Shown: positions 30,826 through 30,937 of the stretch, in pieces | How positions within the stretch are numbered: the first letter of the stretch is position 1 | How the letters are laid out: every line of letters begins with the position of its first letter | The notes under the pieces: generated by a model | Database searches by the model: none | What the model saw: only the letters and a program-made list of their open reading frames with translations | Told to the model about the DNA's origin: nothing | Program-made: the position numbers and the translations under genes | Origin: Roseivirga sp. | GTDB lineage: Bacteria > Bacteroidota > Bacteroidia > Cytophagales > Cyclobacteriaceae | Length of the DNA stretch: 64,000 nt | Direction: 5' to 3' | Assembly: GCA_965277585.1 (NCBI GenBank) | Contig: OZ255828.1 | Location: forward strand, 1,653,865-1,717,864

Positions 30826-30937
30826 GAAGGTCGGAGGTTCGAATCCTCCCTACCCCACTCAAACAGTAACACATATGGGGTAGTAGCTCAGTTGGTTAGA
30901 GTGTCGAATGATGTCGTGGGTTCGAATCCCATCTCCC
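30826..30937 (+). tRNA. tRNA-like 3' half (T arm GGAGG-TTCGAAT-CCTCC + CTACCCC-A, 30833-30857) followed 19 nt later by the matching 5' half (GGGGTAG-TA-GCTC-AGTTGGTTA-GAGT, 30877-30902), then a second T arm (GTGGG-TTCGAAT-CCCAT). Permuted or rearranged tRNA
   Basis: CTACCCC at 30850-30856 is the exact complement of GGGGTAG at 30877-30883. The downstream unit lacks an anticodon arm: the T loop starts 44 nt after the 5' end. Confidence 0.3.

Follow-up and report, generated by a model that had tools for sequence, protein, structure and literature searches.

Circularly permuted genes for transfer RNA (tRNA) were reportedly described by Soma et al. in 2007, from Cyanidioschyzon merolae and some archaea. 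A tRNA-like domain with the order T arm, acceptor stem and D arm is carried by the bacterial Y RNA YrlA (Chen et al. 2014, PMC4201824), and the domain of the Salmonella YrlA has a tRNA-like L shape, as determined by crystallography (bioRxiv 10.1101/312249). [quoted passage not shown] Here we analyzed a stretch of 64,000 nucleotides (nt) from Roseivirga sp. (contig OZ255828.1, positions 1,653,865 to 1,717,864; the whole stretch is called the window below), which contains an RNA element directly upstream of a band-7 gene. We conclude, with a probability of roughly 0.8, that positions 30823–30908 of the window are the first of two tandem tRNA-mimic domains in a conserved structured RNA.

The element was pointed out by a sequence-only reading of the window, according to which the 3' half of a tRNA precedes its matching 5' half. 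The parts listed in that reading were all found as described: a T arm (GGAGG-TTCGAAT-CCTCC, 30833–30849); the 3' acceptor strand CTACCCC (30850–30856), followed by A30857; the strand GGGGTAG (30877–30883), which begins 19 nt past A30857 and 20 nt past the last C; TA (30884–30885) and the D arm GCTC-AGTTGGTTA-GAGT (30886–30902); and a second T arm (GTGGG-TTCGAAT-CCCAT, 30916–30932), followed by CTCCCTT (30933–30939). The D arm and the second T arm are 13 nt apart. These parts belong to two consecutive units, termed module 1 and module 2, with the following features.

30823–30827, + strand: 5' flank strand of module 1 (CTCGA, equivalent to tRNA positions 39–43), pairing with 30904–30908 at four of five positions
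30828–30832, + strand: variable loop of module 1 (AGGTC), in which C48 covaries with G15
30833–30849, + strand: T arm of module 1
30850–30883, + strand: closed acceptor-like hairpin of module 1, formed by CTACCCC (30850–30856), a 20-nt loop (30857–30876) and GGGGTAG (30877–30883), with seven of seven pairs
30884–30908, + strand: U8-A9 (TA), D arm, G26 (30903) and 3' flank strand of module 1 (TCGAA, 30904–30908, equivalent to positions 27–31)
30911–30965, + strand: module 2, with variable loop ATGTC, T arm (30916–30932) and A26; matched by the covariance model described below, with its T arm, acceptor-like stem and D arm predicted by RNAalifold
30933–30947, + strand: short acceptor-like hairpin of module 2 (CTCCCTT-t-TAAGGAG), with five of seven positions paired
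30950–30964, + strand: D arm of module 2 (GCTC-AGAGGTA-GAGC), preceded by TA and also predicted by RNAalifold
30966–30982, + strand: anticodon-arm hairpin of module 2 (CTAGA-CTGTTAA-TCTAG, triplet GTT), with a 5-bp stem, a 7-nt loop and covariation in the RNAalifold prediction

Each module is a circular permutation of the cloverleaf, running from the variable loop through the T arm, an acceptor stem closed by a loop and U8/A9 to the D arm. The flanks of module 1 pair into a 4–5 bp analogue of the anticodon stem that has no anticodon loop, and only 2 nt lie between the strand equivalent to positions 27–31 and the variable loop of module 2. Because it lacks an anticodon loop, module 1 cannot decode.

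We searched species-representative genomes with the Band-7 protein and obtained 31 loci (denoted by L numbers where they must be told apart), 30 of which include upstream sequence; the other one, L019, is cut at a contig end. The loci belong to Roseivirgaceae, Flavobacteriaceae, Saprospiraceae/Lewinellaceae, Crocinitomicaceae/Fluviicola, Spirosoma, Cytophagales and one metagenome-assembled genome (MAG) of Chlorobiota, and a search of viral contigs for Band-7 relatives returned none. A simple pattern, consisting of a T loop, a short gap and the start of a D arm, matched approximately 400–550 nt upstream of Band-7 in almost all loci, and a stricter pattern yielded 44 distinct modules in register, from which a covariance model was built. 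This model scored 50–79 bits beside Band-7 in 30/30 loci with upstream sequence, and added second modules missed by the pattern in L012, L017, L026, L028, L029 and L030. Ordinary tRNA–tRNA junctions within arrays reached only 20–45 bits. In the window, the scores were 69.0 bits at 30823–30908 and 55.7 bits at 30906–30970, and no further match was found in the 64 kb at E ≤ 0.01; the pattern goes far beyond chance. In every locus, the RNA lies directly upstream of band-7, and both share one strand. It usually contains two modules; L011 and L031 have one, which joins the acceptor-stem sequence of the window's module 1 to an anticodon arm, and L002–L004, L006 and L020 have a single module plus an extra hairpin.

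The 44 modules were aligned with MAFFT without structure fitting, after which four helices were named and their pairs counted. Pairing was observed in 90.7% of the cells, compared with 65.0 ± 1.0% in shuffled alignments (0/500 reached the observed value) and 37–51% when the partners were slid by 1–3 columns. Double-sided changes were found at 19 of the 21 pairs. The T and D stems were 100% paired, with double-sided changes at four of the five T-stem pairs, and the acceptor hairpin was 91.1% paired, with such changes at all seven pairs. For the flank stem, the analogue of the anticodon stem, pairing was 73.6% overall, with double-sided changes at all five pairs, and in first modules it was 79%, compared with 51% for shuffled partners. 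Acceptor strands that differ entirely between loci remain complementary (CTACCCC/GGGGTAG in the window, CTGCCCC/GGGGCAG in L005, CTCAAGT/ACTTGAG in L010 and TTAGACC/GGTCTAA in L028), and the flank stems of relatives include TCTGT/ACAGA, TCTAT/ATAGA, GCTGT/ACAGC, GCAGT/ACTGC and TCCAT/ATGGA. Covariation extends to the Levitt pair 15:48, which is G15:C48 in 38 modules, A15:U48 in five and A.C in one. The D-loop GG was present in 44/44 modules. An independent RNAalifold prediction from 13 full-length sequences contained the flank stem, the T and D stems of module 1, and the T arm, acceptor-like stem, D arm and anticodon arm of module 2, together with two hairpins in the 5' domain of the RNA. These results show that the fold is under selection and is tRNA-like, without a free acceptor end. 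The module should fold into a tRNA-like L shape, because the nucleotides of the elbow and core (a D-loop GG of the G18G19 type, the T-loop TTCRA and the 15:48 pair) are kept or covary.

We also considered the register of an ordinary tRNA, in which the strand before the D arm of module 1 would pair with the strand after the T arm of module 2. The Rfam tRNA model matched 30877–30940 at 40 bits and 30944–31006 at 39.4 bits, both above the threshold. The sequence-only reading had held that CTCCCTT does not pair with GGGGTAG; in the window itself this was too strict, since six of seven positions pair when two G-U pairs are allowed, and the Rfam tRNA model therefore scores 30877–30940. Across 14 two-module loci, however, the ordinary register was paired at 45%, which is the chance level, whereas the hairpin register was paired at 88% in module 1 and at 81% in module 2. 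An ordinary tRNA without an anticodon arm at 30877–30940 was accordingly rejected, because its acceptor register pairs at chance level in the relatives. The two Rfam matches depend on deletion of the anticodon arm or on truncated acceptor ends, and ARAGORN, run without permuted-tRNA detection, called no tRNA at the position of the modules.

In first modules, the acceptor loop is 0–5 nt long in most relatives and 17–20 nt long in the lineage of the window (L005, L011, L031), and its first base is not conserved; in second modules, it may be as long as 21 nt. The triplet of module 2 is GTT, ATT, TGT, CAT, CAG, TTT, GTA, TGG or another, depending on the locus, in an anticodon loop that usually has the form C/U-U-NNN-A-A; some of these loops have 8 nt or lack U33.

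The two modules are embedded in a larger RNA, with a conserved core of approximately 300 nt (about 30731–31036) that ends approximately 415 nt upstream of the band-7 gene. Its other features are listed below.

30731–30822, + strand: 5' domain, just past the upstream tRNA-like gene, with nhmmer homology to 28 loci from about 30730–30748
30732–30746, + strand: hairpin CAGGC..GCCTG in the 5' domain
30751–30767, + strand: hairpin P1 of the 5' domain (GGGTT-TCGGTAT-AGCCC), predicted by RNAalifold from 13 loci with compensatory changes
30772–30796, + strand: hairpin P2 of the 5' domain (GTACCCT..ATGGTAT), predicted in the same way with compensatory changes
30986–31002, + strand: hairpin ATGGA-CTCAAAA-TCCAT, in the 3' part of the core
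31008–31036, + strand: candidate H-type pseudoknot (GGAAGT/AGCTG/ACTTCC/CTAAAAA/CAGCT), proposed from a recurring sequence pattern
31038–31054, + strand: hairpin ACACCG-GGAAG-CGGTGT
31055–31450, + strand: lineage-conserved leader extending to the Band-7 start codon, with nhmmer homology within Roseivirgaceae

Homology detected by nhmmer covers the core from ~30736 to ~31030 in 28 loci, and reaches 31312 within Roseivirgaceae and 31447 in the closest relative, L001; the RNA attains ~700 nt in Roseivirgaceae. The pattern of the candidate pseudoknot, RRAG-[S2]-CTYY-TAAAA-[S2']-ACC, recurs in sequence across families in most loci. In the leader, a motif GGATACCG at 31119–31126 is kept in the distant loci L013, L018, L021, L022, L024, L025, L026 and L028. 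Pairing of this motif with the loop of P1 (CGGTAT) was dropped, since by inspection the loop varies without compensation, and a T-box-like reading of GGATACCGC (31119–31127) found no Rfam T-box match. Over 30722–31450, Rfam gave nothing at E ≤ 10 beyond the tRNA and YrlA matches of the modules and noise-level hits, and the Pedo-repair RNA (RF01715), which was considered as a relative, was not matched at E ≤ 10. No convincing open reading frame (ORF) was found at 29580–31450. The tandem arrangement of the domains, the complete anticodon arm of the second one and their setting within a ~300-nt core are features that may not have been described before.

We compared the RNA with YrlA, which has the same order of parts. 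The best match of the Rfam YrlA model (RF02553) in the window, at 30888–30992 (38.5 bits, E = 4e-6), is below the gathering score of 69, and it was this sub-threshold match that pointed to a second unit of the same layout downstream. The model also matched 6/6 relatives tested at 31.4–50.7 bits, all below 69, with the match restricted to model positions ~20–89 in L009, L018, L023 and L028; full-length alignments for the window, L010 and L013 scored no higher, and the outer helices were mismatched in the window. The two RNAs share their order and shape, namely a linker resembling a variable loop, a T arm, an acceptor-like stem-loop, a D arm and an anticodon-stem position formed by the flanks. 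They further share the conserved elbow nucleotides of the T and D loops, a Levitt pair 15:48 with covariation of G:C and A:U, which has been reported for YrlA too (PMC4201824), and an RtcB gene encoded nearby. However, the RNA of the window lacks the Ro-binding stem and carries two tandem copies of the tRNA-like domain, the second of which retains a complete anticodon arm. It has a length of at least ~300 nt and runs on into the band-7 leader, whereas YrlA, at ~100 nt, is a free RNA. As a candidate Ro-binding motif, GTCGAATG at 30903–30910 fits GNCGAAN0-1G; it is not conserved in the relatives and was rejected. No rsr/TROVE gene was found among 17 window ORFs scanned (the neighbours of the RNA were included, and the ORFs at 7577–10816 and 17725–21441 excluded) or among 10 ORFs from relatives.

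The second comparison concerns b7a-tRNA, as it is described in the source cited above (bioRxiv 10.1101/312249). Like that RNA, the RNA of the window is a tRNA-like non-coding RNA beside Band-7/SPFH and RtcB genes, a context for which a role as repair cofactor has been proposed. The likeness to a genuine tRNA in that description would fit the ordinary-register Rfam matches at 30877–30940 and 30944–31006, whereas covariation favours the permuted, closed-acceptor register here. Rfam holds no family for b7a-tRNA. The RNA fits a member of this computationally predicted kind, that is, a YrlA-like or band-7-associated tRNA mimic. Another related system is the long tRNA array (L-array), a type of array linked to translational stress, which in Anabaena is co-regulated with rtcB and was proposed to be a buffer or 'sponge' for tRNA-cleaving toxins (Santamaria-Gomez et al. 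2021, PMC8421152). The RNA in the window similarly directly follows a tRNA array, which comprises 9–16 genes in several relatives; the L-array study, in contrast, covers ordinary tRNA genes and not a permuted tRNA-like RNA or a Band-7 partner.

We infer the role that was proposed for b7a-tRNA by Burroughs & Aravind: the RNA would be bound by the Band-7 scaffold and assist it in RNA repair centred on RtcB, in parallel with Y RNA and Ro60/Rsr. With surfaces shaped like tRNA, it may attract tRNA-recognising enzymes, such as the ligase, modification enzymes and anticodon nucleases, or compete for them, and would not serve as an amino-acid-carrying, decoding tRNA. The genes around the RNA in the window are as follows.

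30095–30720, + strand: array of tRNA and tRNA-like genes upstream of the RNA (ARAGORN and Rfam tRNA-like matches)
30095–30182 and 30614–30720, + strand: tRNA-like matches (Rfam)
30211–30283, + strand: tRNA-Asp (ARAGORN)
30450–30536, + strand: tRNA-Tyr (ARAGORN)
30536–30608, + strand: tRNA-Lys(ctt) (ARAGORN)
31451–32551, + strand: Band-7/SPFH gene, 366 amino acids (aa), the constant neighbour of the RNA (Pfam Band_7, E = 1.3e-33; orthologues in 31 loci)
32641–33147: gene for a basic protein of 168 aa between the Band-7 and TPR genes, assigned to no Pfam or NCBIfam family
33132–33689, + strand: TPR protein gene, 185 aa, a recurrent partner (Pfam TPR families)
34108–35583, + strand: RtcB RNA ligase gene, 491 aa (Pfam RtcB, E = 1e-79; NCBIfam RtcB family)

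The window is part of a Bacteroidota chromosome with 46.7% G+C, and its Band-7 protein is 93–94% identical to the orthologues of two Roseivirga MAGs. Beyond rtcB, genes for a transglutaminase-like protein and a tyrosine phosphatase follow on the same strand. Among the 31 loci, 17 have an RtcB match (28% identity upwards) within 6 kb of Band-7, and many have a TPR homologue or a similar ORF of ~180 aa downstream or just upstream of the RNA, which was confirmed as TPR in L007. The 168-aa protein is conserved, at 60–83% identity, in L001, L004, L005 and L006 only. In L021, a protein of 228 aa with an RF-1 domain (4027–4713, PrfH-like) adjoins the RNA and an ORF of ~190 aa that matches the TPR gene in size and position. 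This gene links the locus to PrfH-RtcB systems of ribosome rescue and repair, around which accretion of TPR proteins has been described (PMC6514570). In L007, a TraG/TrwB-like coupling protein and a serine recombinase (84–3831) are encoded upstream of the TPR–RNA–Band-7 unit, which suggests that this unit lies within or beside a mobile element.

Strong intrinsic terminators were found at 29805–29834 and 29996–30029, both before the tRNA array, and none was found between the array, the tRNA-like units and band-7 in the window. The five loci checked for terminators between the modules and band-7 (the window, L010, L011, L023 and L024) had 0; the scan did not extend to Bacteroidota promoters. Because no terminator separates them, the upstream tRNAs, the RNA and band-7 are probably transcribed together. 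The two strong terminators close two short unannotated units at 29580–30030, just before the array, which could be small RNAs or small peptide genes.

The array itself has several unusual members. ARAGORN called only the genes for tRNA-Asp, tRNA-Tyr and tRNA-Lys(ctt) in the entire window. The last of these begins on the final base of tRNA-Tyr (30536), was not reported by the Rfam tRNA model at E ≤ 10, and position 33 of its anticodon loop (CGCTTAT) is G; this is probably a further degenerate tRNA-like gene. The tRNA-like gene at 30614–30720, which scored 43.2 bits with the Rfam tRNA model and was not called by ARAGORN, has a 23-nt insert in its D loop and a 20-nt hairpin insert directly after the anticodon loop CTTTAAA. 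Its triplet TTA would read the UAA stop codon, and the gene might encode a suppressor-like tRNA or a decoy, or be a pseudogene. Three copies of a palindromic hairpin, CCTGCCTGCGGCAGGCAGG, are present in the window (30052–30070, 30143–30161 and 30667–30685), compared with 0.01 expected by chance; all three are within the tRNA-like array, and two are inserted in the tRNA-like genes 30095–30182 and 30614–30720. Dense arrays of 9–16 tRNA genes directly upstream of the RNA were observed in Flavobacteriaceae and Fluviicola loci, namely at L008 2782–4074, L010 4152–5182, L014 4284–5215, L015 3670–4382, L017 2702–5331 and L021 1768–3554. The tRNA content of the array changes even between close Roseivirga relatives (the window, L001 and L005).

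Several other explanations of the modules were weighed. A genuine circularly permuted tRNA gene, the ends of which are cut before RtcB circularises the product and the acceptor loop is opened to give a functional linear tRNA, would account for the position of the 3' half ahead of the 5' half, for the short stretch that separates the acceptor strands, for the complete anticodon arm of module 2 (triplet GTT) and for an RtcB ligase encoded 3 kb away. The sequence-only reading had likened the arrangement to the permuted genes of Cyanidioschyzon and some archaea, and with respect to the order of parts it was right: the T arm and 3' acceptor strand lie upstream of the 5' acceptor strand and D arm, and the permutation is real and selected, being present with compensatory changes in 30/30 loci. 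The comparison fails for the gene type, since module 1 has no anticodon loop and leaves only 2 nt before the variable loop of module 2; in addition, no 3-nt/4-bp/3-nt bulge-helix-bulge was seen by inspection at 30815–30827/30904–30915 or in the consensus fold, without a dedicated search for this motif. Most relatives have only 0–5 nt where the intervening sequence would be, so that RNase P and RNase Z would have neither a leader nor a trailer to act on. The acceptor stem of module 2 is often imperfect (81% overall, 5/7 in the window), and the variation of its triplet has no visible tie to decoding need, with some loops of 8 nt or without U33. The host, moreover, is a bacterium, and to our knowledge no tRNA splicing endonuclease is known from bacteria. 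Nothing in the locus indicates a mature decoding tRNA, and we regard such a gene as very improbable. The same holds, if anything more strongly, for the view that the modules have no function and are remnants or pseudogenes from a decaying array, in which tRNAs were duplicated in tandem and deleted. The sequence-only reading had allowed for a deletion scar of this type, and tandem duplication is indeed a plausible evolutionary origin of the module; the array at whose end the element lies changes quickly and includes degenerate tRNA-like genes, and weak covariance model matches (20–45 bits) do occur on ordinary tRNA–tRNA junctions. However, the modules adjacent to Band-7 score clearly above these junctions, at 50–79 bits, their position relative to Band-7 is kept across several families and one other phylum, and compensatory changes affect all four helices and a tertiary pair. 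The taxonomic spread also argues against an alignment of recent paralogous copies. No relative holds a simple tandem tRNA pair, and no intact tRNA with the same acceptor stem was found in the window or the 31 loci, a search that covers the fetched loci and not whole genomes. Since all 30 relatives with upstream sequence have the same permuted module, a deletion scar is rejected as a description of the present element. The gene of a two-piece, circularly permuted transfer-messenger RNA (tmRNA) would likewise place the T arm and 3' acceptor strand of its tRNA-like domain first, and the Rfam tmRNA_permuted model matches 30833–30885 weakly (22.6 bits, E = 0.089). This score is far below the gathering threshold of 47. 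Furthermore, alanine identity requires G.U at pair 3:70, which is G-C here, the D stem is complete, whereas tmRNA lacks one, no conserved reading frame for a tag was seen, and the loops of the acceptor hairpins in relatives are very short. L028 also has a standard tmRNA-like match elsewhere. An ARAGORN 'tmRNA*' call over the homologous region of L016 (4973–5372, tag ASSNLARSAL), which might favour the explanation, ends just upstream of the modules and is probably a false call caused by the permuted tRNA-like features nearby. A permuted tmRNA can therefore be practically dismissed.

The remaining alternatives accept the anatomy and concern the fate or action of the RNA. The acceptor hairpin might be opened after transcription, by RNase P cleavage 5' of G30877, trimming past A30857 and addition of CCA, which would yield a tRNA-like molecule with a nick, whose two pieces the flank stem keeps together. 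The acceptor hairpin of module 1, with its seven perfect pairs, an A in the discriminator position and a 20-nt loop, would be suited to such processing, as would the 17–20 nt loops of L005, L011 and L031; in addition, the YrlA of Mycobacterium smegmatis, which likewise has a 7-bp acceptor stem, is cleaved by RNase P in vitro and bears CCA in vivo (PMC4201824). However, the loops of most first modules have 0–5 nt with an unconserved first base, and acceptor opening therefore cannot be a general requirement of the family. CCA is not encoded, and such cleavage does not take place in the Salmonella YrlA or in Deinococcus Yrn1 (PMC4201824). We consider acceptor opening unlikely. A serious alternative, to which we assign a smaller but real likelihood, is that the RNA acts in cis, as a tRNA-shaped leader that senses tRNA damage or damaging enzymes and controls the downstream band-7 and rtcB; an anticodon nuclease might cut the loop of module 2, for example, or an uncharged or damaged tRNA might bind. 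The anatomy would be the same as for a Band-7 partner and the mechanism different. This possibility is consistent with the position of the RNA directly upstream of band-7 on the same strand in every locus, the lack of an intervening terminator in 5/5 loci checked, conservation up to the start codon in close relatives, and an anticodon arm in module 2 that keeps a 5-bp stem and a 7-nt loop while its triplet varies freely. The Salmonella rtc operon, moreover, is induced by damaged tRNA (PMC7790460). On the other hand, no alternative on/off pairing with the ribosome-binding site was identified, no Rfam T-box or other leader model matched, and the conserved core stops ~400 nt short of the start codon in distant relatives. 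In addition, rtcB is often not downstream of the RNA, and is upstream of it in L008, L022 and L026. More speculatively, and in our view doubtful as a whole, the permuted domains may be parts of a large ornate RNA, not described so far, that Bacteroidota possess and that is transcribed with a stress tRNA array and acts as bait or sensor for tRNA-cleaving toxins. Module 2 would then display a formed anticodon arm with a lineage-diversified triplet, and cleavage or binding there could be read by the Band-7 scaffold, repaired by RtcB, or switch band-7/rtcB on in cis. In a bolder variant, RNase P, RNase Z and RtcB might turn the modules into nicked or re-joined tRNA-like molecules.

Some observations weigh against our interpretation of the RNA as a pair of tRNA mimics that partners Band-7. 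The minimum-free-energy fold of the single sequence is not unusually stable (z = –1.27) and mispairs the near-identical T arms, and was not used as evidence. The regular expression by which the modules were collected itself dictated several of the 'invariant' tRNA positions, and these carry no weight. The RNA is not a YrlA orthologue in the strict sense, because the model score is below the gathering score, the Ro-binding stem is missing and Rsr was not found; identity with b7a-tRNA is suggested by a comparison of descriptions, through a secondary source. The function and the Band-7 partnership are deduced from gene neighbourhood, and RtcB is encoded within 6 kb in no more than 17 of the 31 loci.

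The RNA is missed by ARAGORN, and the Rfam tRNA model takes the wrong register and reports two above-threshold 'tRNAs'; therefore, the genome annotations of such loci are probably wrong. The covariation supports three points: the RNA adjacent to Band-7 and RtcB genes consists of permuted tRNA mimics that have a closed acceptor and are of the YrlA type; it lacks a Ro-binding part; and it usually contains the mimic twice. These results support the idea that different scaffolds, Ro60/TROVE or SPFH/Band-7, employ the same tRNA-shaped module in RNA repair. The 30 orthologous loci, some of which come from cultivated Bacteroidota (Roseivirga, Spirosoma), provide a test set for the role of the tRNA-like domain of bacterial Y RNAs and for the substrates of RtcB.

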